Made by a program: the position numbers and the translations under genes
The notes under the pieces: generated by a model
The model's database searches: none
What the model saw: only the letters and a program-made list of their open reading frames with translations
Told to the model about the DNA's origin: nothing
NCBI GenBank assembly: GCA_026770705.1
Contig: JANJGN010000121.1
Coordinates: 186,001-250,000, forward strand
Direction: 5' to 3'
From: Isurus oxyrinchus
Taxonomy: Eukaryota
DNA: 64,000 bases
Shown: positions 4,900 to 63,341 of the stretch, piece after piece
Layout of the letters: each line of letters starts with the position of its first letter
Numbering within the stretch: the first letter of the stretch is position 1

Positions 4900-5196
4900 G
4901 TTGCACAGTTAGTACGAGGGTCCGCTCCGATGAAACAGATGGATATCTCACTCTGCAGCTGAGAGTGTGTCCGTGGTGTTTGAGTGATGGGGTCAGGGTC
5001 AGAACAGAAGTATAGGTCAGAGTGACACCATGCTGAGTTACAGTGTTTGAGACGGATCCAGGTACGTCAGTGGGAGTGTCCCAGGTTAAGACAGGTGCTG
5101 CTGTTCCATTGCACGTTGTGTTGAAGGTGCAGCTTACATCCACACGCTTTCCTGCAATAATTTCAGCAGGGAATATCGTGGGTTTATCTGTGAAAT
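4900..5196 (-). CDS. Siglec-like gene A, exon 4: C2-type Ig domain 2
   Basis: ctcag/gtaagt bounds, 297 nt, phase 1-1; DFTDKPTIFPAEIIAGKRVDVSCTFNTTCNGTAAPVLTW...YTSVLTLTPSLKHHGHTLSCRV, with the extra Cys of Siglec domain 2. Confidence 0.92.
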
Positions 5197-6055
5197 CTGA
5201 GAGACAGAAAATGGATCTTTTTAGAGAAATATAACGTGAAGCATCAGTTCAAATAGAAATCACAGTCCCACAAGAGAAAGCACTTTTACAAGGATGATAT
5301 CAGAACTGAGAGGTTACAATGATCAGGAAAGATTTTCTTGCTCTTTGGCAGTTGTGTTTCTGTCTCTCAGCTTAATACACGTTCACTCCGAGACATGTGA
5401 ATTGAGAATACTGGATGAGAGAAGAGGCTCAGACCAGAGATTGGAGTTAAAAGCAGAATACTGCGGATGCTGGAAATCTGAAACAAAAACAAAAATTGCT
5501 GGAAAGACTCAGCAGGTCTGACAGTATCAGTGGAGAGGAAGACAGGGTTAACGTTTCGAGTCCGTATGACTCTTCATCAGACCAGAGGTTTGAGTTCACT
5601 GGCTTCTCATTTCCTCAGTGATCTGGGTGATTTATCACCTTGTGGTTTGTTGGATCTTGCTGTGCACAAACTGCCTGCTGTGTTTAACATCTGTGACCAC
5701 AATTCAGGAATAATTTCATTGGCTGTGAAGGGATTTGGATCCACCTGAGGTGGTAAATTGCGCAGCAGAAATGCACATCTTTCTTTTATCGATACGTCAG
5801 ACTTTTAAACAGGACAGGAGAGATTGATGGGAGTGGATAACCTGATAATACAGTTAATGCTTTTCATCATTGATATTAAAGTGAGTATTAGAGGTTGCTT
5901 TAGGACTGAACCGGAAGCTATCACCAGGTTATTGAGAATCAGACAGTGTGTTATATTAAGCTGTGTTTTGTGTTAATATGTAAACGTCACAGTTTGTGTT
6001 ATTTCCCATTGAGTGTTGAATGTGAATTGTTGAGTAATTATAACACAGCACTTAC

Positions 6056-6424
6056 CAGAAACATGAAGCTGGGTTACAGGGTAATAGTTATGGTTCGGAC
6101 CATTGTCAAATTCTATCCTGAAAAAATAAGGTCCTGCATCTTCCCGTCTGATGTTGTTTATAATCAGGGAACAGTCGCCATCTTTCAGGTCTCCAGACAG
6201 CCGGGTCCGATGGTGGAACCGTGGTAACTCGTGACTGTGATCCTTGGAGTGAAAGGCAATGGGAGCCCAGGGAATCTGTTTCTCATTATTAAACCAGACT
6301 CCACCTCGCGGTTGGCTTTCCAAATGTGATGGATAACTGTAATGACATGAAATCTGTACACACGAACCTTCCTGCGCTGTCATCTCTCGGGGAGTGTCAC
6401 CTTTCCACTCTTGTGACAGTCCAA
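6056..6424 (-). CDS. Siglec-like gene A, exon 3: V-set sialic-acid-binding Ig domain
   Basis: cccag/gtaagt bounds, 369 nt, phase 1-1; GSCVQISCHYSYP, GDCSLIINN, DAGPYFFRIE (conserved F-strand Arg). Confidence 0.93.
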
Positions 6425-7057
6425 CTGGGGAGAGAAATATCAATATTTAACTCTGGATGTTTTGAAGATCCATGAGGCTCAATATCCACCCCCTCCATCA
6501 CTGGGGCACAGTGGCTGCAGTGTGGACCATCTACAGGACACACAAGGTACTCCCCAAGGTTTCACAATGGATGGAAGAGAGTCCTGGACACAGGAGTGGA
6601 CTAGTTCATTCTACATTGGCTCATGGTCCTCAGGACCCTGTTTAGTGAAGCCAGTGAGACAGTGTCACTGTGCCTTGTATTATAATGCTCCTGTGTAGCC
6701 CCTTGGATTTTTTTTTTTACAGTTAAGGCGCTATGTAAATATAATCTATTGCTCTCTGCTCATCTGGACCATTTGGATTCTTCATTTCAAGCGGACTGGT
6801 GACAGCTTCATGTTCAGTCCAAATGCAGCCTCTAAGTATCACTTTAATGTCAATGATTAAATGTGACCCAACACAGTGTCTACAAGACACACCAACTGAG
6901 ATCCATTCAGTGCTGATTTACAAGACAGGACAATGGATTAGGAGCCCTCAGAACTCCCCCCATTATCACCGTCATGAATCACTAATTAGCCTAACATTCC
7001 TGTCTGCTCTTCAACACAGCTGATTGGCTAATCTGATTCAATCTGATTGGTGCACTT

Positions 7058-7162
7058 TGGACCTTTATTGTCTGAGGAATCTCTTTGGATCCTCATTGTT
7101 TAAGGAATCTCTTTGGATCCTCATTGTCTAAGGAATCTCTATGGATCCTCATTGTCTAAGGG
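7058..7162. repeat. About 28-bp tandem repeat in gene A intron 2
   Basis: ggaatctctttggatcctcattgtctaa, 3-4 copies. Confidence 0.85.
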
Positions 7163-7957
7163 ATTATTTCTGATCCAAACCCCATATTGTTGTATTGTTG
7201 ATTCCGATGCAGCATTGTAGACTGACTTGTCCCCAAGCTCAGCACTGACCCTTCTCCAGCAGACACTGTGAAACACACTAACAAAGCGCCTCTCGCCTGA
7301 GCTCTGCATGTGTTGAGAGAAAGACAAATATGCAAACTGAATATTGACACCTTTACACACGGACAGCTTTACCTTCCTTCTCTCTTTCAGTTATCTTGCT
7401 CCCTTATTGAAGTATCTAGCAAGGTGAGAATGGACAGGAAGTGTGACACTGAACAGCCTGTCTATTCTAGGAGCTGCTGTGTTGTCTTCATGGGAAATTC
7501 TGAATAAAATCAGCAAAAGACACATTTCAGGATATTGCTATCAGACACCTAACATAGAGAGAGACTTCATCCTCCAGTTTTTATCCTGATTTTCTACTCA
7601 ACCTTTTACCACCCTTCCCCCCATCCACACTGACTTACATAGGCTCCCAGTCAAGCAGTGCCTCCATTTTAAGATTCTCATGCTCAATTCCCAATCCCCC
7701 CAACCCCCTCTCCACTCGCTGGCTCTGTAACCTCATCCAGCCCCTTCATCCCTCTCAGATCTCTGCTCTCCTCCAATTCTGCTGTCAGACAGGGAGTCAG
7801 TGTATATCAGTGAGCACAGGGGTGATGGGTCAATGGGACTTGGTGTGAGGTTGTACACCGGCTCACTGCTGAATCGGTTCCCAATCACAGCTCAATAAGA
7901 ATGTTCTTTTACAAAGACTATTAGCCATAAATCTGTTTGAGCTGACGATGATATTAC

Positions 7958-7997
7958 CTTGGAGAAGTGACAGGAGGAAGAAAGATTTCCCGATCAT
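7958..7997 (-). CDS. Siglec-like gene A, exon 2 coding part: signal peptide MIGKSFFLLSLLQ
   Basis: ATG at 7997, donor G|gtaat phase 1, acceptor tttcag at 8040; splices in frame to VGLSQEWK. Confidence 0.88.
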
Positions 7998-8448
7998 TGT
8001 CCACTCCCAGATATTTCCTCAGCTTCTAGCTCTGAAGTTCTGAAAGAGAAAGGAGTTAATGAGACCTCACCTCTTGTCCGACAGCTCTCGAGAGATCAGA
8101 ACTGCTTTTGGACAATGTCTTCACGGATCTAATTTGATTCTCTGTGGGATGATAGGTGCTCTGCAGAGAGTTACAAGGCTTTAAGAAAGAAAAACATTGA
8201 AGGACTTGCATTTCTATAGCACCTTTCACCACCTCAGGACGTCCCCAAGCTCATGTCTCTGCAATTCCCTCATCCCTTGAGCTAGAAAGTTGTTCTGTAC
8301 AACAGACTTGAGCCTCACACCCAGATCTCAATAATCAGTAGAAATCTTTCAAAGGCATCAATCATTGGAATCTGTCTTTATAAAGTCACAACATCAACAA
8401 AGGACGGTGTTGGTCGTGGAAGTGAATTCCAATCGTTCCGTTACTTAC

Positions 8449-10219: not shown

Positions 10220-13200
10220 TGTACTGAAGAGGTGCTGCACTGTCAGAGGGTCAGTACTGAGGGAGTGCTGCACTGTCAGAGGGTCAGTACTGAGGGAGTG
10301 CTGCACTGTCAGAGGGTCAGTACTGAAGAGGTGCTGCACTGTCAGAGGGTCAGTACTGAGGGAGTGCTGCACTGTCAGAGGATCAGTACTGAGGGAGTGC
10401 TGCACTGTCAGAGGGTCAGTACTGAGGGAGTGCTGCACTGTCAGAGGGTCAGTACTGAAGAGGTGCTGCACTGTCAGAGGGTCAGTACTGAGGGAGTGCT
10501 GCACTGTCAGAGGGTCAGTACTGAGGGAGTGCTGCACTGTCAGAGGGTCAGTACTGAGGGAGTGCTGCACTGTCAGAGGGTCAGTACTGAAGAGGTGCTG
10601 CACTGTCAGAGGGTCAGTACTGAGGGAGTGCTGCACTGTCAGAGGGTCAGTACTGAGGGAGTGCTGCACTGTCAGAGGGTCAGTACTGAGGGAGTGCTGC
10701 ACTGTCAGAGGGTCAGTACTGAGGGAGTGCTGCACTGTCAGAGGGTCAGTACTGAGGGAGTGCTGCACTGTCAGAGGGTCAGTACTGAGGGAGTGCTGCA
10801 CTGTCAGAGGGTCAGTACTGAGGGAGTGCTGCACTGTCAGAGGGTCAGTACTGAAGAGGTGCTGCACTGTCAGAGGGTCAGTACTGAGGGAGTGCTGCAC
10901 TGTCAGAGGGTCAGTACTGAGGGAGTGCTGCACTGGCAGAGGGTCAGTACTGAGGGAGTGCTGCACTGTCAGAGGGTCAATACTGAAGAGGTGCTGCACT
11001 GTCAAAGGGTCAGTACTGAAGAGGTGCTGCACTGTCAGAGGGTCAGTACTGAGGGAGTGCTGCACTGTCAGAGGGTCAGTACTGAGGGAGTGCTGCACTG
11101 GCAGAGGGTCAGTACTGAGGGAGTGCTGCACTGTCAGAGGGTCAGTACTGAAGCAATGCTGCACTGTCAGAGGGTCAGTATTGAGGGAGTGCTGCACTGT
11201 CAGAGAGTCAGTACTGAGGGAGTGCCGCACTGTAAGAGGGTCAGTACTGAAGCAATGCTGCACTGTAAGAGGGTCAGTACTGAGGGAGTGCTGCACTGTC
11301 AGAGGGTCAGTACTGAGGGAGTGCTGCACTGTCAGAGGGTCAGTACTGAGGGAGTGCTGCACTGTCAGAGGGTCAGTACTGAGTGAGTGCTGCACTGTCA
11401 GAGGGTCTGTACTGAAGAGGTGCTGCACTGTCAGAGGGTCAGTACTGAGGGAGTGCTGCACTGTCAGAGGGTCAGTACTGAGGGAGTGCTGCACTGGCAG
11501 AGGGTCAGTACTGAGGGAGTGCTGCACTGTCAGAGGGTCAGTACTGAAGCAATGCTGCACTGTCAGAGGGTCAGTATTGAGGGAGTGCTGCACTGTCAGA
11601 GAGTCAGTACTGAGGGAGTGCCGCACTGTAAGAGGGTCAGTACTGAAGCAATGCTGCACTGTCAGAGGTTCAGTACTGAAGAGGTGCTGCACTGTAAGAG
11701 GGTCAGTACTGAGGGAGTGCTGCACTGTGGGAGGGTCAGTACTGAGGGAGTGCTGCACTGTCAGAGGGTCAGTACTGAGGGAGTGCTGCACTGTCAGAGG
11801 GTCAGTACTGAGGGAGTGCTGCACTGTCATAGGGTCAGTACTGAGCGAGTGCTGCACTGTCATAGGGTCAGTACTGAGTGAGTGCTGCACTGTCAGAGGG
11901 TCAGTACTGAGAGAGTGCTGCACTGTCAGAGGGTCAATGCTGAGGGAGTGCTGCACTGTGGGAGAGTCAGTACTGAGGGAGTGCTGCACTGTCGGAGGGT
12001 CAGTACTGAAGAGGTGCTGCACTGTCAGAGGGTCAGTACTGAGGGAGTGCTGCACTGTCAGAGGGTCAGTACTGAGGGAGTGCTGCACTGTCAGAGGGTC
12101 AGTACTGAGGGAGTGCTGCACTGTCAGAGGGTCAGTACTGAGGGAGTGCTGCACTGTCAGAGGGTCAGTACTGAGGGAGTGCTGCACTGTCAGAGGGTCA
12201 GTACTGAGGGAGTGCTGCACTGTCAGAGGGTCAGTACTGAGGGAGTGCTGCACTGTCAGAGGGTCAGTACTGAAGAGGTCCTGCACTGTCAGAGGGTCAG
12301 TACTGAGGGAGTGCTGCACTGTCAGAGGGTCAGTACTGAGGGAGTGCTGCACTGTCAGAGGGTCAGTACTGAGGGAGTGCTGCACTGTCAGAGGGTCAGT
12401 ACTGAGGGAGTGCTGCACTGTCAGAGGGTCAGTACTGAGGGAGTGCTGCACTGTCAGAGGGTCAGTACTGAGGGAGTGCTGCACTGTCAGAGGGTCAGTA
12501 CTGAAGAGGTGCTGCACTGTCAGAGGGTCAGTACTGAGGGAGTGCTGCACTGTCAGAGGGTCAGTAATGAGGGAGTGCTGCACTGTCAGAGGGTCAGTAC
12601 TGAGGGAGTGCTGCACTGTCAGAGGGTCAGTACTGAAGAGGTGCTGCACTGTCAGAGGGTCAGTACTGAAGAGGTGCTGCACTGTCAGAGGGTCAGTACT
12701 GAGGGAGTGCTGCACTGTCAGAGGATCAGTACTGAGGGAGTGCTGCACTGTCAGAGGGTCAGTACTGAGGGAGTGCTGCACTGTCAGAGGGTCAGTACTG
12801 AAGAGGTGCTGCACTGTCAGAGGGTCAGTACTGAGGGAGTGCTGCACTGTCAGAGGGTCAGTACTGAGGGAGTGCTGCACTGTCAGAGGGTCAGTACTGA
12901 GGGAGTGCTGCACTGTCAGAGGGTCAGTACTGAAGAGGTGCTGCACTGTCAGAGGGTCAGTACTGAGGGAGTGCTGCACTGTCAGAGGGTCAGTACTGAG
13001 GGAGTGCTGCACTGTCAGAGGGTCAGTACTGAGGGAGTGCTGCACTGTCAGAGGGTCAGTACTGAGGGAGTGCTGCACTGTCAGAGGGTCAGTACTGAGG
13101 GAGTGCTGCACTGTCAGAGGGTCAGTACTGAGGGAGTGCTGCACTGTCAGAGGGTCAGTACTGAGGGAGTGCTGCACTGTCAGAGGGTCAGTACTGAAGA

Positions 13201-16200
13201 GGTGCTGCACTGTCAGAGGGTCAGTACTGAGGGAGTGCTGCACTGTCAGAGGGTCAGTACTGAGGGAGTGCTGCACTGGCAGAGGGTCAGTACTGAGGGA
13301 GTGCTGCACTGTCAGAGGGTCAATACTGAAGAGGTGCTGCACTGTCAAAGGGTCAGTACTGAAGAGGTGCTGCACTGTCAGAGGGTCAGTACTGAGGGAG
13401 TGCTGCACTGTCAGAGGGTCAGTACTGAGGGAGTGCTGCACTGGCAGAGGGTCAGTACTGAGGGAGTGCTGCACTGTCAGAGGGTCAGTACTGAAGCAAT
13501 GCTGCACTGTCAGAGGGTCAGTATTGAGGGAGTGCTGCACTGTCAGAGAGTCAGTACTGAGGGAGTGCCGCACTGTAAGAGGGTCAGTACTGAAGCAATG
13601 CTGCACTGTAAGAGGGTCAGTACTGAGGGAGTGCTGCACTGTCAGAGGGTCAGTACTGAGGGAGTGCTGCACTGTCAGAGGGTCAGTACTGAGGGAGTGC
13701 TGCACTGTCAGAGGGTCAGTACTGAGTGAGTGCTGCACTGTCAGAGGGTCTGTACTGAAGAGGTGCTGCACTGTCAGAGGGTCAGTACTGAGGGAGTGCT
13801 GCACTGTCAGAGGGTCAGTACTGAGGGAGTGCTGCACTGGCAGAGGGTCAGTACTGAGGGAGTGCTGCACTGTCAGAGGGTCAGTACTGAAGCAATGCTG
13901 CACTGTCAGAGGGTCAGTATTGAGGGAGTGCTGCACTGTCAGAGAGTCAGTACTGAGGGAGTGCCGCACTGTAAGAGGGTCAGTACTGAAGCAATGCTGC
14001 ACTGTCAGAGGTTCAGTACTGAAGAGGTGCTGCACTGTAAGAGGGTCAGTACTGAGGGAGTGCTGCACTGTGGGAGGGTCAGTACTGAGGGAGTGCTGCA
14101 CTGTCAGAGGGTCAGTACTGAGGGAGTGCTGCACTGTCAGAGGGTCAGTACTGAGGGAGTGCTGCACTGTCATAGGGTCAGTACTGAGCGAGTGCTGCAC
14201 TGTCATAGGGTCAGTACTGAGTGAGTGCTGCACTGTCAGAGGGTCAGTACTGAGAGAGTGCTGCACTGTCAGAGGGTCAATGCTGAGGGAGTGCTGCACT
14301 GTGGGAGAGTCAGTACTGAGGGAGTGCTGCACTGTCGGAGGGTCAGTACTGAAGAGGTGCTGCACTGTCAGAGGGTCAGTACTGAGGGAGTGCTGCACTG
14401 TCAGAGGGTCAGTACTGAGGGAGTGCTGCACTGTCAGAGGGTCAGTACTGAGGGAGTGCTGCACTGTCAGAGGGTCAGTACTGAGGGAGTGCTGCACTGT
14501 CAGAGGGTCAGTACTGAGGGAGTGCTGCACTGTCAGAGGGTCAGTACTGAGGGAGTGCTGCACTGTCAGAGGGTCAGTACTGAGGGAGTGCTGCACTGTC
14601 AGAGGGTCAGTACTGAAGAGGTCCTGCACTGTCAGAGGGTCAGTACTGAGGGAGTGCTGCACTGTCAGAGGGTCAGTACTGAGGGAGTGCTGCACTGTCA
14701 GAGGGTCAGTACTGAGGGAGTGCTGCACTGTCAGAGGGTCAGTACTGAGGGAGTGCTGCACTGTCAGAGGGTCAGTACTGAGGGAGTGCTGCACTGTCAG
14801 AGGGTCAGTACTGAGGGAGTGCTGCACTGTCAGAGGGTCAGTACTGAAGAGGTGCTGCACTGTCAGAGGGTCAGTACTGAGGGAGTGCTGCACTGTCAGA
14901 GGGTCAGTACTGAGGGAGTGCTGCACTGTCAGAGGGTCAGTACTGAGGGAGTGCTGCACTGTCAGAGGGTCAGTACTGAAGAGGTGCTGCACTGTCAGAG
15001 GGTCAGTACTGAGGGAGTGCTGCACTGTCAGAGGGTCAGTACTGAGGGAGTGCTGCACTGTCAGAGGGTCAGTACTGAGGGAGTGCTGCACTGTCAGAGG
15101 GTCAGTACTGAGGGAGTGCTGCACTGTCAGAGGGTCAGTACTGAGGGAGTGCTGCACTGTCAGAGGGTCAGTACTGAGGGAGTGCTGCACTGTCAGAGGG
15201 TCAGTACTGAGGGAGTGCTGCACTGTCAGAGGGTCAGTACTGAAGAGGTGCTGCACTGTCAGAGGGTCAGTACTGAGGGAGTGCTGCACTGTCAGAGGGT
15301 CAGTACTGAGGGAGTGCTGCACTGGCAGAGGGTCAGTACTGAGGGAGTGCTGCACTGTCAGAGGGTCAATACTGAAGAGGTGCTGCACTGTCAAAGGGTC
15401 AGTACTGAAGAGGTGCTGCACTGTCAGAGGGTCAGTACTGAGGGAGTGCTGCACTGTCAGAGGGTCAGTACTGAGGGAGTGCTGCACTGGCAGAGGGTCA
15501 GTACTGAGGGAGTGCTGCACTGTCAGAGGGTCAGTACTGAAGCAATGCTGCACTGTCAGAGGGTCAGTATTGAGGGAGTGCTGCACTGTCAGAGAGTCAG
15601 TACTGAGGGAGTGCCGCACTGTAAGAGGGTCAGTACTGAAGCAATGCTGCACTGTAAGAGGGTCAGTACTGAGGGAGTGCTGCACTGTCAGAGGGTCAGT
15701 ACTGAGGGAGTGCTGCACTGTCAGAGGGTCAGTACTGAGGGAGTGCTGCACTGTCAGAGGGTCAGTACTGAGTGAGTGCTGCACTGTCAGAGGGTCTGTA
15801 CTGAAGAGGTGCTGCACTGTCAGAGGGTCAGTACTGAGGGAGTGCTGCACTGTCAGAGGGTCAGTACTGAGGGAGTGCTGCACTGGCAGAGGGTCAGTAC
15901 TGAGGGAGTGCTGCACTGTCAGAGGGTCAGTACTGAAGCAATGCTGCACTGTCAGAGGGTCAGTATTGAGGGAGTGCTGCACTGTCAGAGAGTCAGTACT
16001 GAGGGAGTGCCGCACTGTAAGAGGGTCAGTACTGAAGCAATGCTGCACTGTCAGAGGTTCAGTACTGAAGAGGTGCTGCACTGTAAGAGGGTCAGTACTG
16101 AGGGAGTGCTGCACTGTGGGAGGGTCAGTACTGAGGGAGTGCTGCACTGTCAGAGGGTCAGTACTGAGGGAGTGCTGCACTGTCAGAGGGTCAGTACTGA

Positions 16201-19117
16201 GGGAGTGCTGCACTGTCATAGGGTCAGTACTGAGCGAGTGCTGCACTGTCATAGGGTCAGTACTGAGTGAGTGCTGCACTGTCAGAGGGTCAGTACTGAG
16301 AGAGTGCTGCACTGTCAGAGGGTCAATGCTGAGGGAGTGCTGCACTGTGGGAGAGTCAGTACTGAGGGAGTGCTGCACTGTCGGAGGGTCAGTACTGAAG
16401 AGGTGCTGCACTGTCAGAGGGTCAGTACTGAGGGAGTGCTGCACTGTCAGAGGGTCAGTACTGAGGGAGTGCTGCACTGTCAGAGGGTCAGTACTGAGGG
16501 AGTGCTGCACTGTCAGAGGGTCAGTACTGAGGGAGTGCTGCACTGTCAGAGGGTCAGTACTGAGGGAGTGCTGCACTGTCAGAGGGTCAGTACTGAGGGA
16601 GTGCTGCACTGTCAGAGGGTCAGTACTGAGGGAGTGCTGCACTGTCAGAGGGTCAGTACTGAAGAGGTCCTGCACTGTCAGAGGGTCAGTACTGAGGGAG
16701 TGCTGCACTGTCAGAGGGTCAGTACTGAGGGAGTGCTGCACTGTCAGAGGGTCAGTACTGAGGGAGTGCTGCACTGTCAGAGGGTCAGTACTGAGGGAGT
16801 GCTGCACTGTCAGAGGGTCAGTACTGAGGGAGTGCTGCACTGTCAGAGGGTCAGTACTGAGGGAGTGCTGCACTGTCAGAGGGTCAGTACTGAGGGAGTG
16901 CTGCACTGTCAGAGGGTCAGTACTGAAGAGGTGCTGCACTGTCAGAGGGTCAGTACTGAGGGAGTGCTGCACTGTCAGAGGGTCAGTACTGAGGGAGTGC
17001 TGCACTGGCAGAGGGTCAGTACTGAGGGAGTGCTGCACTGTCAGAGGGTCAATACTGAAGAGGTGCTGCACTGTCAAAGGGTCAGTACTGAAGAGGTGCT
17101 GCACTGTCAGAGGGTCAGTACTGAGGGAGTGCTGCACTGTCAGAGGGTCAGTACTGAGGGAGTGCTGCACTGGCAGAGGGTCAGTACTGAGGGAGTGCTG
17201 CACTGTCAGAGGGTCAGTACTGAAGCAATGCTGCACTGTCAGAGGGTCAGTATTGAGGGAGTGCTGCACTGTCAGAGAGTCAGTACTGAGGGAGTGCCGC
17301 ACTGTAAGAGGGTCAGTACTGAAGCAATGCTGCACTGTAAGAGGGTCAGTACTGAGGGAGTGCTGCACTGTCAGAGGGTCAGTACTGAGGGAGTGCTGCA
17401 CTGTCAGAGGGTCAGTACTGAGGGAGTGCTGCACTGTCAGAGGGTCAGTACTGAGTGAGTGCTGCACTGTCAGAGGGTCTGTACTGAAGAGGTGCTGCAC
17501 TGTCAGAGGGTCAGTACTGAGGGAGTGCTGCACTGTCAGAGGGTCAGTACTGAGGGAGTGCTGCACTGGCAGAGGGTCAGTACTGAGGGAGTGCTGCACT
17601 GTCAGAGGGTCAGTACTGAAGCAATGCTGCACTGTCAGAGGGTCAGTATTGAGGGAGTGCTGCACTGTCAGAGAGTCAGTACTGAGGGAGTGCCGCACTG
17701 TAAGAGGGTCAGTACTGAAGCAATGCTGCACTGTCAGAGGTTCAGTACTGAAGAGGTGCTGCACTGTAAGAGGGTCAGTACTGAGGGAGTGCTGCACTGT
17801 GGGAGGGTCAGTACTGAGGGAGTGCTGCACTGTCAGAGGGTCAGTACTGAGGGAGTGCTGCACTGTCAGAGGGTCAGTACTGAGGGAGTGCTGCACTGTC
17901 AGAGGGTCAGTACTGAGGGAGTGCTGCACTGTCATAGGGTCAGTACTGAGCGAGTGCTGCACTGTCATAGGGTCAGTACTGAGTGAGTGCTGCACTGTCA
18001 GAGGGTCAGTACTGAGAGAGTGCTGCACTGTCAGAGGGTCAATGCTGAGGGAGTGCTGCACTGTGGGAGAGTCAGTACTGAGGGAGTGCTGCACTGTCGG
18101 AGGGTCAGTACTGAGGCAGAGCTGCACTGTCAGAGGGTCAGTACTGAGGGAGTGCTGCACTGTCAGAGGGTCAGTACTGAAGCAATGCTGCACTGTCAGA
18201 GGGTCAGTACTGAGGGAGTGCTGCACTGTCAGAGGGTCAGTACTGAGGGAGTGCTGCACTGTAAGAGGGTCAGTACTGAAGCAATGCTGCACTGTCAGAG
18301 GGTCAGTACTGAGGGAGTGATGCACTGTAAGAGGGTCAGTACTGAAGCAATGCTGCACTGTCAGAGGGTCAGTACTGAGGGAGTGCTGCACCGTCAGAGG
18401 GTCAGTACTGAGGGAGTGCTGCACTGTCAGAGGGTCAGTACTGAGGGAGTGCTGCACTGTCAGAGGGTCAGTACTGAGGCAATGCTGCACTGTCAGAGGG
18501 TCAGTATTGAGGGAGTGATGCACTGTCATAGGGTCAGTACTGAGGGAGTGCTGAACGGTCATAGGGTCAGTACTGAGTGAGTGCTGCACTGTCAGAGGGT
18601 CAGTACTGAGAGAGTGCTGCACTGTCAGAGGGTCAATGCTGAGGGAGTGCTGCACTGTGGGAGGGTCAGTACTGAGGGAGTGCTGCACTGTCGGAGGGTC
18701 AGTACTGAGGCAGAGCTGCACTGTCAGAGGGTCAGTACTGAGGGAGTGCTGCACTGTGGGAGAGTCAGTACTGAGGGAGTGCTGCACTGTCGGAGGGTCA
18801 GTACTGAGGCAGAGCGGCACTGTCAGAGAGTCAGTACTGAGTGAGTGCTGTACTAATGGTGGGTCAGTACTGAGGGAGTGCTGCACTGCCAGAAGTTCAG
18901 TACTGAGGGAACGCTGCATTATCGGTGGGTCAGTGCTGAGGGAGTGCTGCACTGTCAGAGGGTCAGTACTGAGGAAGTGTTGCACTGTCAGAGGGTCAGT
19001 ACTGAGGGAGTGCTAAACTGTCAGAGGGTCAGTACTGAGGGAGTGCTGAACTGTCAGATGGTCAGTACTGGGGTAGTGCTGCACTGTCGGAGGGTCAGTA
19101 CTGAGGGAGTGCTGCTC
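10220..19117 (+). repeat. Large 33-bp minisatellite, about 270 units, with higher-order repeats
   Basis: Homogeneous units; variant blocks recur at 11387, 13730, 15776 and 17459. Confidence 0.99.
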
Positions 19118-19121
19118 TGTG

Positions 19122-19345
19122 AATCATTGGAATCTGTCTTTATAAAGTCACAACATCAACAAAGGACGGTGTTGGTGGTGGAAGTGAATTCCAATCGTTC
19201 CGTTACTTACCCAGGACCTGTCCGACTGCTCGCCTGGGGAGGAACTGCCCACACGCTCTGCTTGGGCTGAATGACCTCTTCCTGTGCTGCTCCCTCTGTG
19301 TGTTTAATGAGAAAGGGTGGATGTGTCACTGTGAGACAAAGTGGG
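19122..19345 (-). pseudogene. Orphan third copy of the Siglec-like promoter/exon 1 (donor at 19210)
   Basis: Near identical to 8361-8585 and to the reverse complement of about 25580-25800; intron 1 is cut by the big array after about 90 bp. Confidence 0.85.
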
Positions 19346-19429
19346 AGGTGTTTGCTGTCAAAGTATGAAAGCAAACTGTTAAACCTTGGAGTGCCAAGGC
19401 TGTGTCCGAATGTGACTAAACTTTTTCCC

Positions 19430-20345
19430 ATGTAACAGGCTCGAGGGGCTGAATGGCCTGCTCTTGTTCCTGTGTAATGGGATTGAGGGGGCTGAATGGG
19501 CCCCTCATGTTCATGTGTAACAGGCTCAAGGGGTTGAACGGCCTCCTCCTTTTCTTTTCTTACAAGCTCGAGGGGCTGAATGGGCCTCCTCCTGTTCCTG
19601 TGTCATAGGCTCGATGGGCTGAATGGGCCTCCTCCTGTTCCTGTGTCACAGGCTCAATGGGCTGAATGGGCCTCCTCCTGTTCCTGTGTCACAGGCTCGA
19701 TGGGCTGAATGGGCCTCCTCCTGTTCCTGTGTCACAGGCTTGAGGGGGCTGAATGGGCCTCTTCCTGTTCCTGTGTAACAGGCTCAAGGGGGCTGAATGG
19801 GCCTCCTCCTGTTCCTGCGTAACAGGCTCGAGGGGGCTGAATGGGCCTCCTCCTGTTACTGTGTAACAGGCTCAAGGGGCTGAATGGGCCTCCTCCTGTT
19901 CCTGTGTAACAGGCTCGAGGGGGCTGAGTGGGCCTCCTCCTGTTCCTGTGTAACAGGCTCGAGGGGGCTGAGTGGGCCTCCTCCTGTTGCTGTGTAACCG
20001 GCTCAAGGGGCTGAATGGTCCTCCTCCTGTTCCTGTGTAACAGGCTCAAAGGGCTGAAAGGCCTCCTGCTGTTCCTGTGTAACAGGCTGGAGGGGGCTGA
20101 ATGGGCCTCCTCCTTTCTTCTGTGTAGCAGACTCGAGGCGGCTGAATGGGCCTCCTCCTGTTCCTGTGTAACAGGCTCGAGGGGGCTGAATGGCCCTCCT
20201 CCTGTTACTGTGTAACAGGCTCAAGGGGCTGAATGGGCCTCCTCCTGTTCCTGTGTAACAGGCTTGAGGGGCTGAATGGGCCTCCTCCTGTTCCTGTGTA
20301 ACAGGCTCGAGGAGCTGAATGGGCCTCCTCCTTTCTTCTGTGTAA
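19430..20345 (+). repeat. About 43-bp minisatellite resembling the CR1 LINE/SINE 3' tail
   Basis: Tandem tgtgtaacaggctcgaggggctgaatgggcctcctcctgttcc. Confidence 0.92.
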
Positions 20346-21423
20346 ATGGCCAGTCCAAAGGATGTGTTTGATGCTGGGGTTAATGGCCTCCAACACAATC
20401 CTATCCTCACATGATTAACTTAGTTAGTGACTGGTTACTGGTTAATGCAGGAGGATTATTTATTTTCCCAATCTTTTATCCATGTGTCTGGTTAGGATCT
20501 TTTCATCAAACACAGAGCGGAACCAGGATCGAGGATGTTGGTGTCTGAAATCTGTAACACATCGCACAGTCCGCCCATTCACTCAGCCTTCTGGATGGAG
20601 GCTAATTGTTCTTTCAAAAACTGAAAGACTGAAATGGTTGTAAGTTGTAGCTTTAGCTCATTCTGTTGTCAAAGCTGTTTCAGCCATCCAGGATACAGTG
20701 AAAAACGTACATTTGCAAGCAACTTTTCACATCATAGCTCCCTCTGTTCACAATGACATTGGCAACATCAATGTAAACATGTCACGCTGTAATAACATCC
20801 TCCCACCAGTGCTGGCACCGTAGCACACCTGTTTTCCTCTGTGTTGTCGGAAGTCTACCAATTCTCCAATCAAATTGTTTCCCTTTCCCAGGCTGCGATT
20901 AGTTTAATATTAAACAATAACTCATAAAATACACATGTTCTCTGAACATATGTTTGACTGCAAAATGGTGAATAAATTATAGGGATTTGCTCTGGTCCAA
21001 TTATCCACTGATCCTGCATTTCCTGAAGTCTACACTGGCTGGTGAATATTCTGTAAACACTGGCAGACAGGAAGGTGAATAACAGAATGAAAATTAACTC
21101 ATAATCACGGACACGGGATTGAATTTGTCCGTTCTGTCCTGGTACATCATCGAACGATATCTAAAGACATTTACAATCAGAATGGAGAGAAGGATGTTTC
21201 CAACAGTGAGGGACAATTCTGAAGGAGGATGTTCGAATTGAAACCCACAGACAATCATCCTGGATAGATCATTCCGAAGAAATTCCATCAGATTGTAACA
21301 AGAGGTTTAAATCTATTTCCTGGGAGTGAGTTCCTGTGGATATTAGGAAGGTAAATTGGAGTTTTGAATGATTCTCCCGTTCTGTATTCTCCCCACACTG
21401 TGTGTGTCTCATTCTTGCTCAGT

Positions 21424-21540
21424 TTATAAATTCCCATAAACAGAATCCTTGGCAAAATCACAGTTTGCGTAAAGATCATCATCTGTATCAGGATTGACTC
21501 CGCGGTTAGATTTCATTTCCAGATCCTTCTCATCTTTCTT
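21424..21540 (-). CDS. Orphan terminal cytoplasmic exon of an immunoreceptor (two tyrosine motifs)
   Basis: Acceptor tttctattacag; phase-0 frame KKDEKDLEMKSNRGVNPDTDDDLYANCDFAKDSVYGNL*. Confidence 0.7.
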   Translation of the reverse strand, partial: KKDEKDLEMKSNRGVNPDTDDDLYANCDFAKDSVYGNL

Positions 21541-21649
21541 CTGTAATAGAAACAGAAATGATCAGAGTGACAATCAGAGTGATCAGTGTTTAGTATTATT
21601 GATCCAAATCGAAAATTCCACCCACAATAGAGACATTAATTATTGATAC

Positions 21650-42007: not shown

Positions 42008-42079
42008 CTGGAAAAGCAGGAGTACAATAGGTGAGAACATTCCGGAAAGAAAGAAGGCATCATTTCAATCAGGCGCGTC

Positions 42080-43927: not shown

Positions 43928-44024
43928 CTGCAAAAAGAAAGAATTTATCAGGGAGAAAGTGAGAGGAGGATTGAGGGAGAGGGAGAGAGAGAGAGAGAGG
44001 TACAGGAGAGAGAGGGGGAGGAGG

Positions 44025-44630
44025 ACAGACTTGCATTTCTCTAACGCCTTTCACCACATCCCAAAGCATTTCACAGCCACTGAAGGATGTTTTTGAAGTG
44101 CACTCACACTGTAGGAAATGTGGCAGCTGATTTGTGCACAGCAAGATCCCACAAATAGCAATGTGATCATGGCCTAGATCATCTGTTTTTGGTGATGTTT
44201 GGTGAGGGATAAATATTGGTCCCAGGACACCGGGGAGAACACCCCCTGCTCTTCCTCCAAATAGTGGCTGTGGGATCTTTCACACCCGCCCGAGAGGGCA
44301 GACGGGGGACTCGGTTTAATGTCTCATTCAACATTGTTGTGCTCCCTCAGTACTAACCCTTTGACACTGCAGCACTCCCTCAGTACTAACCCTTCGATAG
44401 TGCTGCACTCCCTCAGTACTGACCCTCCGACAGTGCAACACTTCCACAGTACTGACCCTGTAACAATGCAGCACTTCCTCAGTACTGACCTCCGACAGTA
44501 TAGCACTCACTCAGTACTGTCCCTCCAATAGTGCAATACTTCCACACTACTGACCCTCTGACAGTGCAGCACTCCCTCAGCACGGAGTGTTGACCGACGT
44601 TATGGGACTGAATTCCCTGGAGTGAGACTC
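44025..44630. mobile_element. Deu-domain-type SINE with internal 33-bp array (HAMP intron 1)
   Basis: Same family as 42080; array 44340-44580. Confidence 0.75.
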
Positions 44631-44654
44631 AGACCAGAGATTTAGGTAGGGTTG

Positions 44655-45580: not shown

Positions 45581-45775
45581 GGAGGGATTGAAAACAAGAA
45601 TGAGAATTTCAGGGGAAATGACAGAAGGAAATGATGTTAAATTCATAGAGGGCGACAATATTAAAGGCACGAACATAATAATATCAAACTGCGGAAGTGA
45701 CCAGTCTATCTGGGTGGTGGACGTAGAGTCATGTGCAAGAAACACCTCACCCAGAGGGACATCTCTTAGCTTAAC

Positions 45776-45867
45776 CTCGACAAGGAGAAGAAGTGACTCA
45801 GCTGCAGGGAGAGCAGCAAAGTCAGAGTGAACAAGACAAGTCGCCATTTCATCTGGGAGCTTCCCAT
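45776..45867 (-). CDS. HAMP: Hepcidin exon 1 coding part: signal peptide MGSSQMKWRLVLFTLTLLLSLQLSH...
   Basis: Hydrophobic leader about 70 bp downstream of a TATA box; donor AG|gttaag gives 92 nt, one short of phase 0. Confidence 0.75.
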
Positions 45868-45937
45868 CTCTGCCTGTCTCTTCTGATCTTCTGGCTCTGC
45901 TTTGATGCTTTGGTTTGTAACTAGAGGAGCTTCCTGC

Positions 45938-45944
45938 TCTTATA
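45938..45944 (-). promoter_or_regulatory. HAMP TATA box (TATAAGA)
   Basis: About 70 bp upstream of the ATG. Confidence 0.65.
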
Positions 45945-46076
45945 CCTGAAACACTTGAAGGGGACAGCCGGGGGTGGGTTGCTGTGTGGTATCACACCCA
46001 TTTCTGGATATTGCAGTGTCGATGTTCCCTGTCCCACTGGCCTGGGACCAGCAGTAAGGTCACTGGGACATTGACT

Positions 46077-46088
46077 GTCTGGCGCCGA
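46077..46088 (-). promoter_or_regulatory. BMP/SMAD response element in the HAMP promoter
   Basis: TCGGCGCCAGAC: GGCGCC core (46081-46086) plus abutting AGAC Smad-binding element. Confidence 0.65.
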
Positions 46089-46317
46089 GAACTATCAGTC
46101 CCTCCGCAACGCCCTTCACCTTGTGCAAATATGTGTTCATATTGACGCAACACAACATAGCAAAAACATAGGGGCTGGTTCTTATGTCGGCAAATCAGGT
46201 GAACCGCACGCCCCCTAACCCCTTACTCCTCTCATTGCTACACTTACTATTTTACAAATTGTGTGCGTTGCTTTTATTTTGGACAAGGGGCCTCGAGGGG
46301 GAACTGATTTACATTTT

Positions 46318-46997: not shown

Positions 46998-47365
46998 AAG
47001 GGGCTGAATGGCCTCCTCCTGTTCCTGTGTAACGGGCATCAGTGGCTGAATGTCCTCCTCCTGTTCCTGTATAACGGACATAAGTGGCAGAATGGCCTCC
47101 TCTTGTTCCTGTGTAACGGACATAAGTGGCAGAATGGCCTCCTCCTGTTTCTGTGTAACAGTCTTGAGGGGGCTGAATGGCCTCCTCCTGTTCCTGTGTA
47201 ACAGTCTCGAGGAGGCTGAATGGCCTCTTCCTGTATCTGTGTAACAGGCTCAATGGGCTGAATGGCCTCCTCCTGTTCCTGTGTAACAGTCTCGAGGGGG
47301 CTGAATGGGCCTCTTCCTGTTCCTGTGTAACAGGCTCGACGGGCTGAATGGCCTCCTTCTGCTCT
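46998..47365 (+). repeat. About 42-bp LINE-tail-like minisatellite
   Basis: gggctgaatggcctcctcctgttcctgtgtaac units. Confidence 0.9.
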
Positions 47366-47374
47366 GTAAAATTG

Positions 47375-47600
47375 TTGTGATACTGTAACTGCCTCTTTGG
47401 TTTCATTCAGCTGAATCTTCAGCTCTTCAGTCTCTTCCTTGTATCTCTTGCCTTCCTCCTGGAACATTGGACATGGTTGGGTCTTCCCTGCCAACTGTTT
47501 CTTCAGTTTGCTCAGAGCGGCACAGAATTCGCTTTCTTTCTCTTCAGGATTTTCCAGTGGAACCAACTCTGACCTGAGGGACACTTGCAGCCTGTGAGGA
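47375..47600 (-). pseudogene. Coiled-coil coding fragment, possibly UACA/RAI14/ANKRD24-like
   Basis: LQVSLRSELVPLENPEEKESEFCAALSKLKKQLAGKTQPCPMFQEEGKRYKEETEELKIQLNE; family resemblance from memory, no splice sites seen. Confidence 0.4.
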
Positions 47601-48733
47601 TGCTTCAATTCTTCAAACTCATTCCGAGATACACTCTCATATTCCCCCAGCAACTCAGCAACTCCTCCAGTGAAACATTTCAGAGCAGCTGAGCTTGGTT
47701 TTCTGGAACCAGTCTCGGCCCAGAAGACTAGGGCCCTCACCTGTCGCTATGATCACTGGAAGCTGGGCTGTCTGCTGCCTGTAGGACACAGGTACTGGGA
47801 TGAGGTCCTTTCCCTGTATGGATTCTCCAGTGTGTGTCTTCAGCTGATCCATTGTTTGCTCTAAATTCAGCGTCTGGGTTCCTTCATTTAGCTGTTTAAA
47901 TGTGGGCTCTTCCACCACTGTGTCTGAGGCTCCCGTATCTGCCCCATTACTAGTGGCTGCCCATTCACTTGGGTTGTGATGGTTATAGGTTCAGTTTTTA
48001 CCACTGTGACATTGGACAGGGAATAGACATCGGTATCAGCAGCTTCAGGCTCTGTGATATTATTCACTTCCATCATGTTGGTGCACTGCCTGATGGGCTG
48101 TCTCGATTTCACCCTGCATTGCTTTATTACCCGCCCCTTTCTTGTGGCAGTGATGGCATTCTGCCCCCTCGAACCTGCAGGTGTCCGGTACGTGCTCACT
48201 CCCCCCACATCGAGAACAGGCCAACTTCGGAGTTGCTGCTGAAATACTCCCACAAAGCCTTGTAGTTTCTGGAGCGGCAGAGACTGTCTCTCGCTTGGCG
48301 GCTGTCTCTCTCTCTCTCTCTCTCTCTCTCCAGTTTGAGCCTCACGCCCGGTGGTTGGTTCCTGTCCCAGCTGAGGACTGGCGCCATGTTGTACATCCTG
48401 TAAATCCCGCCAGTCTCTTCCAGCACTTTCCATGCCTGGCGCTATTTCCATGGCGCGCTTCAAATCGATGTCGGCTTCTGCGAGTAAACGGCTCTGAATG
48501 GCGTTGGGGTGAACGACACAAACCAATCGGCCCCGCAACATGTCATTGAGTGTGTCTCCGAGGTCCCAGTGCTCAGTCACCTGCTTCCACTTCACTGTAT
48601 AGGTTGCGATGGACTCTCCCGGGGCCCTTACTCTGGAGTTAAACTTAAACCTTTTCATTATTACCCACGGCTTCAGCTGAAAACACATCTTCATGAGGTC
48701 GACTAATTGGTGAAAAGATTTAGAATTGGGTGC
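47600..48733 (-). mobile_element. Ty3/Gypsy gag-protease remnant
   Basis: KRFKFNSRVRAPGES...MLRGRLVC, GPSLLGRDW; same family as 23486-24715. Confidence 0.85.
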
Positions 48734-49021
48734 AATACACGTCACTGTCTTCAGCTCTGAGACTGTCAGTCCTCACCGAACAATTCTTCCCTTCCAAGTC
48801 GCCGATTATTTTAGCACGTCCCACGAATGTGGCCATCCCATAATTGGGATCTTTGGTGTATGTGATGGTATATTTCCATCTATACCAATATATATACCAA
48901 GCTCCGTGCAGTGCTGTGTAAGAGTGGGAAGGAAAGTCAAAGCTACACGGAATAACCACACAAGAGCTGCTGATGGCCCTCCGAGGCAGCGCCTTCATAG
49001 ACCATCCCTCTGACGTCACTC
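48733..49021 (-). pseudogene. Siglec-like gene C V-set exon, truncated
   Basis: Acceptor ctttcag, phase 1; GVTSEGWSM...SCVVIPCSFDFP...GRAKIIGDLEGKNCSVRTDSLRAEDSDVY, then Gypsy sequence and TAA at 48720. Confidence 0.85.
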
Positions 49022-49089
49022 CTGAAAGGCAACAAGGGAGGGGACTGAACATCAAAAAGCAGAATATTACTTCAATGGAGAGAGTCTAC

Positions 49090-49530
49090 AGAATGCGGTA
49101 CAGAGGGATCTGGGTGTCCATGTACATGAATCACAGAAAGTCAGCATTCAGGAACAGCACGGAATGAGGAAGGCAAGTGGAATGTTGGCCTTTATTGCAA
49201 AGGGATGGAGTATAAAAGGAGGGAAGTCTTGCTACAACTGTACAGGGCGTTGGTGAGATTGTATCAGGAGCAGTGTGTACAGTTCTGGTCTCCTTACTTA
49301 GGGAGGGATAGACTCTGCATTGGAGGCAGCTCAGAGGAGGTTCACTGGGCTGATTCCTGGGATGAAGGGGGTTTGTCTTATGAGGAAATGTTGAGCAGGT
49401 TGGGCCCTGTATCCATTGGAGTTTAGAAGAATGAGAGGTGATCTTATTGAAACATATAAGATTCTGAGGTGGTGGGGGGTTTGACAGGGTGGATGCTGAG
49501 GGGATGTTACCCCTTGTGGGGGAATCCTGT
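49090..49530 (+). mobile_element. CR1 LINE fragment
   Basis: MEYKRREVLLQLYRALVR...CVQFWSPY. Confidence 0.85.
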
Positions 49531-49841
49531 GAAGCAATAAGGATGTTTTACTGCATTAAAGGTGCTATATAAATGCACTGTCATTCCTATTGAAACAAGC
49601 TCTCTGATGCACAAACAGAAAATGCTAGAAAAACTCAGCAGGTCTGACAGCATCTGTGGAGAGAGAAACAGAGTTGGTGTTTCGAGTCCGTATGAGGCTT
49701 TTGCTTTTGCTATATTCTCTGACTCGCTATTCACTCACTCTCTGTGTGATCACTAACCCTGTTCTCTAAAATTAAATGTTCACTTCCTCACTCCAGGAAA
49801 GAATCCAATTCCCTGAGTTCCAATCAGTAATGAATTTGTAC

Positions 49842-49887
49842 CTTGCAGCAAGCTGATGAAGATCAATATCAGACCGACCTCTCCCAT
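49842..49887 (-). CDS. Gene C signal-peptide exon MGEVGLILIFISLLQ
   Basis: Acceptor ccatttag at 49902, donor G|gtac phase 1; same SLLQ ending as genes A and B. Confidence 0.8.
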
Positions 49888-61294: not shown

Positions 61295-61543
61295 TCAGTT
61301 TTTCTGGAACCTGATCTGTGTGTATTCCGTGTCCTCGCTCCTGTGCACAGTCCTGTCACTGCTGGGCAGCTTTGAAAAGTTGATGTTGGCGTAGAGAAGG
61401 TCGGCGGTATTGTCGGGGTTCCCATGTCCAACATCGCCTCCCACTGGACCTTCAGAGAGATCCCGGGGAGCTGGGGTCTCCCCCTCACTAGTTGTGTCTC
61501 TGGTTGTTTCCCGGGGCTCAGAAATCAGCAAGTTCTGTTCATC
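61295..61543 (-). CDS. Siglec-like gene D last exon: ITIM plus ITSM-like motif
   Basis: ...DLLYANINFSKLP...EDTEYTQIRFQKN*; acceptor at 61543 or 61534 (both phase 0). Confidence 0.88.
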   Translation of the reverse strand, partial: DEQNLLISEPRETTRDTTSEGETPAPRDLSEGPVGGDVGHGNPDNTADLLYANINFSKLPSSDRTVHRSEDTEYTQIRFQKN

Positions 61544-61724
61544 CTCCAGAGAAATGGAAACAGAAGACATCCTCACATCATTTACTGGCACTGATAGGGT
61601 TAAATTATTGTGCAGCCTCATTAGTGTCAGTCGTGTCTCAGTGGGTTTAAGCCTTTTTTTCACTCTCTTTCTCTGTCTCTCTTTCTCTCTCGCTTTCTCT
61701 CTCTCTTAATAATTTAATCTCTAT

Positions 61725-62255
61725 CGCACTCCAACAGTGCAGCACTCCCTCAGTACTGACCCTCTGACAGTGCAGCACTCCCTCAGTACTGACCCTCTGA
61801 CAGTGCAGCAGTCCCTCACTACTGACCCTCCGACAGTGCAGTACTCCCTCAGTACTGACCCTCTGACAGTGCAGCACTCCCTCAGTACTGACCCTCTGAC
61901 AGTGCAGCACTCCCTCAGTACTGACCCTCTGACAGTCCAGCACTCCCTCAGTACTGACCCTCTGACAGTGCAGCACTTCCTCAGCACTGATACTCCGAAC
62001 GTCCAGCACACGATCAGTACTGACCATCAGACAGTGCAACACTCCCTCAGTACTGACACTCTGACAGTGCAACACTCCCTCAGTACTGACCCTCCGACAG
62101 TGCTGCACTCCCTCAGTACTGATCCTCTGACAGTGCAGCACTCCCTCAGTACTGACCCTCCGACAGTGCAGCACTCCCTCAGTACTGACACTCCGACAGT
62201 GCATCACTCCCTCACTACTGACCCTCTGACAGTGCAGCACTCCCTCACTACTGAC
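61725..62255 (-). repeat. 33-bp minisatellite array in gene D intron
   Basis: Tandem units. Confidence 0.95.
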
Positions 62256-62288
62256 ATCAGGTGCCTTGTCATTATTGTGTTCAGGTTT
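62256..62288 (-). CDS. Gene D candidate 33-nt cytoplasmic exon KPEHNNDKAPD
   Basis: Long pyrimidine tract plus ccag; donor gtcagt; phase 0-0. Confidence 0.5.
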
Positions 62289-62468
62289 CTGGTCAAAGAG
62301 CGAGTGATGGAGGGAGACAGAGGCAGGGAGCGAGAGACAGTGCTGACCACTGAGCCATTGCTGACTTCACAGGGCGATATCTGTGTGTAACCCGGTTGAG
62401 AATCTGGTATACGTGTTGTCTACACACTGAGGTTGAAGCTTTGGAGTGAGTGTAAACAGCTCCTGTAC

Positions 62469-62550
62469 CTGGTGCTTCACAGAGAGTGACCTGAGGGTCA
62501 ATGCAATGTAATTGGTCCCTGAACCTCTCTCCTCCATCGCTGTCTTTCTC
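62469..62550 (-). CDS. Gene D cytoplasmic exon RKTAMEERGSGTNYIALTLRSLSVKHQ
   Basis: ttgcag / CAG|gtacag, phase 2-0, in frame with the TM exon. Confidence 0.75.
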
Positions 62551-63244
62551 CTGCAATAACACAATATCACACTGTGGTTATCATATAGCAGAGAGTCAGT
62601 GCAGCACAGACACAGAGCCCAGTGTAACCTTACACCAACGACTGGACTGTCTCTAGTTCCAATAAGGGATATCAGCGTGACATCACTATAATGGAAGTGT
62701 GTCATGTGATCCAATCTCAATTTGACATTTGCTTTGAGCAGAACACACACTCACAGCTCTGATGCCTTCAAGCTTTCTCCGTATGTATAACTGTTCTCGT
62801 GCCGAGTCTTGATAAACAAATCATTAACATTCTCACCAAATCCCCTATGAGTGATTGGTGTTTTCTGTCTTATACAGTAAATAAGCCTAAGGTATAATAT
62901 CATTATAATAACACGCCATATCTTTGACCCCCCCTCCACCCCTGCTCTTCCCCCCATAGCCCTTCAAATGTTCCCCCTTCAAATATTTATCCAATTCCCC
63001 TTTTGAAAGTTCCTATTGAATCTGCTTCCAGCGCCCTTTCAGGCAGCACCTTCCAGATCACAGCAACTGATTATTATTCATCTGGATAACGGGCAATGAA
63101 AAACACTCTCTGGATCATAACGGATAAAGAGACCAGTTAGGGAGAGGCATCTGGCGCTTAACACAAGGGAAACAATCACCGACTTAAGGAAAGAACATTG
63201 AAGCAAATGTTTATATTAAAATCAAGTTAAATCTTCAGACTTAC

Positions 63245-63341
63245 TTTCTCACACAGATGAAGATGAAGATTCCAGCCAGGAAAACACTCAACATGATCCC
63301 AGCCGTGAACAATCCTACTGTCCATTTACTGGAGTCTCTAC
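63245..63341 (-). CDS. Gene D transmembrane exon (uncharged TM)
   Basis: tttttacag/gtaagt, phase 1-2; RDSSKWTVGLFTAGIMLSVFLAGIFIFICVRK. Confidence 0.88.

Follow-up and report, generated by a model that had tools for sequence, protein, structure and literature searches.

The 64,000-nucleotide stretch of Isurus oxyrinchus DNA analysed here (the window; contig JANJGN010000121.1, or C121, positions 186001-250000) carries a hepcidin gene among genes for Siglec-like immunoglobulin (Ig) proteins. On balance, we read it as one unit of a multi-megabase hepcidin-Siglec array, in which the multiplied hepcidin probably serves as a diversified secreted defence peptide while two unchanged copies on a separate scaffold, C34, probably act as the iron hormone. 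What is new lies in the scale and in the combination of two known kinds of system, a HAMP2-like hepcidin expansion and a Siglec cluster. The genome searched comprised 4.98 Gb in 5558 contigs. All 99 protein matches came from sharks and rays, with white shark (95%) and basking shark (90%) nearest among the named proteins.

The initial annotation had placed hepcidin between Siglec-like genes B and C, and we recovered it there as a three-exon gene on the reverse strand (41891-45867), flanked by both. The coding part of exon 1 (45775-45867) specifies the signal peptide, exon 2 (43871-43927) contributes 19 codons of the pro-region, and exon 3 (41891-42007), identified by Pfam and by alignment, encodes the end of the pro-region, an RQKR site, a 29-residue mature peptide with eight cysteines and the stop codon. 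Exon 3 scored above the cut-off of the Pfam Hepcidin family (PF06446, E 1.7e-7), and in an alignment with named shark, ray, chimaera, sturgeon and frog hepcidins the eight cysteines follow the furin-type site in the hepcidin pattern. The mature peptide starts MGRQQLC and carries an N-E-T sequon in its loop. Directly after exon 1, the intron-1 donor reads TT instead of GT, which the initial annotation had missed; the window's own copy is thus likely splice-dead, at a position where other copies splice. Assembly error as the source of the TT was considered and became less plausible, as the window's letter recurs in a contig (X10) from a different study, though a contig from run X8 has GT. An in-frame prepropeptide of three exons is a property of the array, in which 43 of 89 copies are intact and both exon joints occur in RNA contigs, and the window copy departs from it at the intron-1 donor.

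The array itself was delimited by searching the genome with its exon 3 (97 of 97 candidates scored). This revealed 89 hepcidin copies of 73-100% identity on 14 unplaced contigs, which sum to 13.8 Mb, plus two copies at 58% on C34, a 19.9-Mb scaffold. No other hepcidin above the cut-off was found by a Pfam search of the genome in which 150 of 151 candidates were scored. The 43 intact copies have three exons, canonical splice sites and eight cysteines, with RQKR in 34 and an altered cleavage site in nine, and they encode 21 different mature peptides. The GT to TT donor change is present in 36 of the 89, the window's among them, and the other 10 are broken otherwise or lack exons 1 and 2 within 7 kb. 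A 35-base motif of the Siglec V exon, allowing up to two mismatches, matched the genome 790 times (control 0), each match counting as an exon and not as a gene. Among the 100 places listed for this motif, 97 were on unplaced array-type contigs, two on C34 and one on C25; the last, at C25:36.07 Mb, is a lone 42-codon fragment of the family's V exon on a chromosome-scale scaffold.

It is very improbable that this array reflects a few real copies multiplied by misassembly or uncollapsed haplotypes. Such an origin would fit contigs that are unplaced and repeat-rich, the presence of haplotype duplicates, and 5' and 3' halves of copies that are unlinked, as chimeric assembly could give. The copies, however, diverge by a median of 2.1% (0.65% between nearest neighbours) and fall into 81 clusters at a 0.25% threshold, and contig C52 alone holds 30 copies of which every pair is at least 0.55% apart. 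Their differences, unlike errors, favour non-cysteine codons and spare cysteines, and RNA carries alleles present in the assembly. Depth also speaks against an artefact, although it is uncalibrated: word depth reached 2257 for a 291-base DNA contig over exon 1 in run X8, which may derive from the sample behind the assembly itself, and about 500-1800 for contigs covering or flanking exon 1 in run X13, from another organism; variant contigs beside these had depths of 40 and 32 (32 in X13). We did not take contig depth as copy number or expression level, but these DNA contig depths agree with many copies and hint at an amplification common to a relative. Stretches of 10 kb around all 88 hepcidin copies other than the window's were examined; four pairs reached at least 99.3% identity across most of this length or the whole of it, and may be haplotype duplicates. 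Given the 30 distinct copies on C52 and the possible haplotype pairs, we set the floor at 30 copies per haploid genome, with a likely range of 45-89; haplotype inflation of up to twofold is possible.

Array copies formed a single clade apart from the C34 pair in trees of both the 5' and the 3' part (100/100; 80 rows each). On the 5' tree the donor state required 5 changes against 24 when shuffled, the donor's own column being part of that alignment, while on the 3' tree it required 25 against 24.6 and was thus unclustered. The discordance suggests that copies often exchange sequence, or else that the assembly is chimeric. In addition, the V exon of a relic from a second Siglec-like subfamily, which has 118 close copies in the genome, lies 4-11 kb upstream of 68 of the 89 hepcidin copies and on the same strand, so that hepcidin was copied as part of a cassette.

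The mature peptide sets the array apart from the C34 copies. The C34 peptide starts MSHLSIC and differs at two positions from that of the basking shark, whereas array peptides start M-G/S/D-R-Q. Mature position 3 is a histidine in C34 and in five of six other vertebrate hepcidins aligned, and an arginine in the array, so the HAMP1-type N-terminus, a position-3 histidine with a hydrophobic residue after it, is present in C34 (MSHLSI) and absent from the array. The hepcidin N-terminus and termini are described as the parts buried in ferroportin (PMC8235187), and in sea bass, hamp1 starts QSHLSLC and hamp2 does not (PMC8502971). The derived array peptide would bind ferroportin poorly and act on microbes, in parallel to teleost HAMP2. 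A long loop special to the array was rejected as a further distinction, since it also occurs in C34, basking shark and sevengill shark. The N-E-T sequon in the loop was invariant in 79 of 79 copies; it is very unlikely, though conceivable, that it makes the array peptide a sialylated ligand of the co-amplified Siglecs.

The array peptide could instead still be a ferroportin ligand, its amplification raising the hormone dose for iron withholding. The retained signal peptide, cleavage site (RQKR in 34 of the 43 intact copies) and eight cysteines are in keeping with this, as are the very large ferritin expansions of sharks (10.1101/2024.09.09.611499). We nevertheless consider a dose effect unlikely: in the N-terminus buried in ferroportin (PMC8235187), the conserved histidine and the hydrophobic residue after it are gone, and diversification of the N-terminal segment is hard to reconcile with one conserved receptor.

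Diversity among the copies is concentrated in the mature region. In the 69 copies with all exons at full length it was 0.042 there and 0.002 in exons 1 and 2, with 0.013-0.023 in the non-coding flanks (promoter, introns, untranslated region) and 0.001 in the 58 bases before exon 2. Diversity in the mature region was 0.048 at non-synonymous sites (piN) and 0.012 at synonymous sites (piS), and the common alleles of the 79 copies with a full-length exon 3 comprised 15 non-synonymous and 1 synonymous. Common variants reached 0.29 per non-cysteine mature site against 0.059 in the flanks (Fisher P 1.5e-6, with 5 and 1 outlier flank rows dropped and sites that are not independent). Cysteine losses occurred in none of 40 intact copies and in 2 of 32 TT copies. 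Among copies, exons 1 and 2 had roughly a tenth of the diversity of the introns, at synonymous sites too (window 45700-45990). Selection alone is insufficient to account for this low diversity, and local gene conversion might be its cause.

A spliced array product was evident among contigs of four runs that we guess to be RNA, all from one sample; we put weight on their splice joints. RNA contigs ending at 42008 (X1, X6) continue into exon 2, giving the exon 2-3 joint, and at the contig end at 45775 (X1) exon 1 continues into exon 2, giving the exon 1-2 joint. Array-type mRNA is therefore spliced in frame. In three runs, summed word depth was 1e5-1e6 on exon 3 and the 3' untranslated region and 1e2-1e3 on the intron, values that cannot rank expression; in the fourth run exon word depth was in the hundreds. 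C34-specific letters made up a minority of the RNA depth, and several array alleles, G2S and P19S among them, were present too. Array and C34 hepcidin promoters were alike over only about 150 bases 5' of the ATG and unrelated farther out (window 45868-46290). The array promoter has at -219 a GGCGCC hexamer that C34 lacks, a single hexamer that resembles a BMP element.

Several results weigh against a defence role for the multiplied peptide, or against the array as drawn here. Damage or missing parts affect 46 of the 89 copies, and alongside them a dead relic exon has multiplied to 118 copies; amplification by itself is therefore no sign of selection on hepcidin. Non-synonymous diversity is alike in TT copies (piN 0.051) and intact copies (0.046), and the 21 non-synonymous to 2 synonymous alleles are near the 5:1 ratio of sites. 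Between the array and C34, 25 of 72.5 non-synonymous sites differ, but so do 5 of 14.5 synonymous ones. Each fraction exceeds the 0.086 measured in the flanks, and the synonymous excess could stem from a mutation hotspot or from an exon converted long ago. The commonest array peptide has a net charge of +2 against +5 for C34, modest for an antimicrobial, and the RNA comes from one sample. Finally, the assembly contains haplotype duplicates (LSR twice, besides the four hepcidin pairs), and with the array contigs unplaced, the link between array and C34 is one of descent.

Some of these observations would fit hepcidin as a passenger, copied along in the cassette under selection on the Siglec repertoire while its peptide drifted under relaxed constraint. 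About half of the copies are broken, a pseudo-exon was amplified within the same cassette, synonymous divergence from C34 is high as well, and piN is equal in TT and intact copies. We regard this as a serious alternative, although clearly a less probable one. Against drift, exons 1 and 2 and the cysteines are almost fixed while common variants are some five times denser at non-cysteine mature sites than in the flanks, and array-type mRNA undergoes splicing and accounts for most of the RNA contig depth, a measure that is not quantitative.

In the scenario of a diversified defence peptide, a MAG-like Siglec cluster beside hepcidin would have undergone birth-and-death expansion, and one hepcidin duplicate with a changed mature peptide would have entered the repeated unit. 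This hepcidin unit would then have been multiplied and shuffled together with paired inhibitory and activating receptors, with unequal crossing-over and gene conversion, as in Siglec birth-and-death, enlarging the array from its source at C34. The array product would act in defence, while the two unchanged C34 copies would keep iron control. More tentatively, the whole might represent a lamniform HAMP2-like radiation: 45-90 hepcidin genes under diversifying selection in a several-hundred-gene Siglec paired-receptor array at an ancestral HAMP-Siglec-FFAR locus, with effector and glycan receptors shuffled as one immune supercluster. With similar reserve, 45-90 hepcidin genes would be a larger set than any that we found in print or observed.

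The ancestral side of this scenario is represented on C34. A gap-free segment of 266 kb between the assembly gaps at 15,110,242 and 15,376,810 contains three V exons and tails of the window's Siglec family, both ancestral-type hepcidins and an intact FFAR2/3-type gene. The latter (C34:15,293,102; best match FFAR3/2) lies about 60 kb from the nearer hepcidin, and a second FFAR-like gene (C34:15,509,146; best match FFAR2) lies beyond the gap. No further FFAR match in the genome reached E 1e-25 among the best 150 of 186 candidates. Mammalian FFAR2 is reported to share a locus with HAMP and USF2, with MAG close by (PMC4453067). The FFAR-hepcidin linkage expected of the human 19q13.12 block is thus found on C34, whose segment would be the orthologue of that block. 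On C34 the FFAR gene is upstream of hepcidin and on the opposite strand; in human it is downstream of HAMP and on the same strand. In basking shark (13,667,426 bases) and sevengill shark (15,743,313 bases), hepcidin and the Siglec family were found on records of the same length, a co-location judged by length only. About 200 kb to the left of the C34 segment, beyond a satellite block and a gap, we observed an intact chemoattractant-type G-protein-coupled receptor (GPCR) at C34:14.92 Mb, with chemerin-like receptor 1 as best match, followed by C3aR, FPR and C5aR.

The initial annotation had read the window as an orthologous HAMP-MAG-CD22 block, to be recognized by USF2, LSR, MAG, CD22 and FFAR in its flanks. 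The linkage of hepcidin, Siglec-family genes and FFAR stands, but on C34; the window is a derived duplicate unit. No one-to-one MAG or CD22 was located beside any hepcidin or anywhere in the genome, in searches that were weak: a MAG motif matched 6 times and its control 7 times, and the Ig_CD22 search scored 150 of 810 candidates and was flooded by array exons. Its outliers on C2274 (best match MAG, 52 bits) and C1037 (best match sialoadhesin, 58 bits) were set aside as other Siglec-like genes, neither clearly MAG nor CD22. C2274, C1037 and C8 each carry a further divergent Siglec-like V-C2 gene, and C1037, which has an exon 91% identical to the array family, may be a cluster edge. USF2 was likewise not located by weak searches: a USF2 motif had no match in the genome, and an HLH search (150 of 353 candidates scored, 127 listed) had none on C34, C452 or the array contigs. 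LSR lies elsewhere, on the unplaced contigs C452 and C1620; both are small and carry an LSR exon with the same peptide, and are probably haplotype duplicates. The 120 kb of C452 around LSR are 87% tandem repeat, with no USF-like motif, Siglec or hepcidin. In the unique flanks of the C34 segment, a Pfam scan of 190 of 194 long frames, which short exons would escape, detected two GPCRs and a transposase only. TMEM147 had no match anywhere in the genome either, and the absence of USF2, MAG and CD22 therefore says little.

The Ig genes of the window are supported as Siglecs by their sequence features. Gene A (4901-8039, reverse strand) has a leader exon (7958-8039, ATG near 7997), a V-set exon (6057-6425) with the YFFR arginine and the Siglec cysteine pattern, and a C2-set exon (4901-5194) recognized by its domain match (C2-set_2); it extends left of the window with Ig, transmembrane and three tyrosine-bearing tail exons, and reads intact. 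Its V domain was closest to Siglec V domains, which made up all 17 best matches in the PDB, and YFFR aligned with Siglec-7 and Siglec-5, placing its arginine at the F-strand, sialic-acid-binding position. The cysteines of the B-E intrasheet pair and of the V-to-C2 link aligned with those of Siglec-7 and MAG, from which the corresponding disulfides are predicted. A five-domain family member from white shark aligned with MAG across all five domains (202 bits; CD22, 55 bits), whereas over three domains Siglec-8 (124 bits) and MAG (122 bits) tied. In a V-domain tree restricted to sharks and rays and built on few columns, sequences clustered by shark order. Some array V exons have a longer, tryptophan- and tyrosine-rich C-C' region, forming a clade that among the tree rows is confined to this genome.

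Gene B (26121-34161, forward strand) and gene A form an inverted duplication of 87-90% identity. Gene B consists of a leader exon (26121-26202) whose start codon is lost, a V-set exon (27059-27439) with a frameshift near its start, a C2-set exon (28683-28979) identified by domain match, a third Ig exon (32036-32317) and a transmembrane exon (34023-34161) with an intramembrane arginine and a short tail of activating-receptor type. Of gene C (61295-63341, reverse strand), only the 3' end is inside the window: a transmembrane exon (63244-63341), a tail exon (62465-62550) and a last exon (61295-61543) with an immunoreceptor tyrosine-based inhibitory motif (ITIM, LLYANI) and a motif like an immunoreceptor tyrosine-based switch motif (ITSM, TEYTQI). 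To the right are its V and C2 exons and some seven more Ig exons; in C121:250,000-258,000 about seven near-identical Ig exons stand in tandem, one of which is truncated. Across the family, stalk length is highly variable. The type I membrane organization thus comes with an inhibitory tail in gene C and an activating-type transmembrane segment in gene B. The initial annotation had missed the main feature, the co-amplification of hepcidin, as well as both lesions of gene B.

Between genes A and B lies a 33-bp minisatellite of about 270 copies (10221-19120). The repeat produces stop-free frames as long as 2900 codons on either strand, which were rejected as genes. The 33-bp unit and a 37-bp unit are also present in hepcidin introns. 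Next to the minisatellite, two orphan cytoplasmic-tail exons resemble those of gene A (19211-21543, reverse strand). Upstream of hepcidin, the relic of the second Siglec-like subfamily (48735-49887, reverse strand) retains a leader and a truncated V exon (48735-49021), the latter missed in the initial annotation. It is cut by degenerate sequence resembling a long-terminal-repeat retroelement (47042-48734, reverse strand), in which gag- and protease-like frames were seen by eye and no Pfam match was found. This subfamily, CD22-like in NCBI naming, has YYFYV and lacks the essential arginine. The arginine is absent in white and basking shark too, where the V exon occurs with a variety of stalks and tails, suggestive of exon shuffling. 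Some copies in the genome have longer open frames and may be intact.

No shark hepcidin or Siglec array was found in the literature searched by title and the start of the abstract, where supplements or subscription papers could hold one, and the word hepcidin was absent from the main texts of a whale-shark paper (PMC8455134) and a Greenland-shark preprint. If our reading holds, sharks have independently replayed the split between an iron hormone and a multicopy defence hepcidin, with several times the published teleost copy numbers, and the matched ancestral and derived peptides offer a direct test of the role of the N-terminus. As in teleost HAMP1/HAMP2, one or two conserved copies of xSHLS type coexist with a multicopy type that has a derived N-terminus and signs of positive selection, all with three exons (PMC6240063, PMC8502971, PMC11043163). 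Reports of HAMP2 are confined to Percomorphaceae and Ovalentaria (PMC6240063), and the shark array, in cartilaginous fish, would have an independent origin. Its exons 1 and 2 and introns are about 91-93% identical to those of the shark C34 copies, so the array type arose within sharks, outside the acanthopterygian hamp2 lineage, and is HAMP2 by analogy only. Copy numbers differ as well, with 89 assembled copies against 6 to about 15: large yellow croaker has six genes, then called the highest number (PMC6240063), and gilthead seabream genes are named up to hamp2.14 (PMC11043163). Also unlike teleost HAMP2, the shark array is interleaved with Siglec genes over 13.8 Mb, has an eight-residue loop with an invariant N-E-T sequon and is known here from sequence.

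The C34 segment resembles the human USF2-HAMP-MAG-CD22-FFAR block in having hepcidin beside Siglec-family genes and FFAR2/3-type receptors. It differs from 19q13.12 in that the elasmobranch Siglecs are a multigene family of MAG-like architecture and not one-to-one MAG or CD22, in the orientation of FFAR and hepcidin, and in having LSR on other contigs. In mammals, the CD33-related Siglec cluster has paired receptors, Siglec-5/14 and Siglec-11/16. Like that cluster, the shark family combines the essential V-set arginine with either ITIM/ITSM tails or charged-transmembrane activating tails, and has near-identical ectodomains, many pseudogenes and inverted pairs. It is likened to the cluster by these features and not by orthology, and differs in its 790 V-exon matches, where the mammalian cluster has a few tens of genes, and in a membrane arginine in place of lysine. 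Teleosts are said to be without Siglec genes of CD33-related type (PMC7226832). That a cartilaginous fish has, next to hepcidin and FFAR, a very large family of inhibitory and activating Siglecs with MAG-like architecture bears on the origin of the variable mammalian cluster. The array also recalls the shark ferritins, another iron-related gene family expanded into very large clusters, for which 155 and 179 copies are reported (10.1101/2024.09.09.611499).

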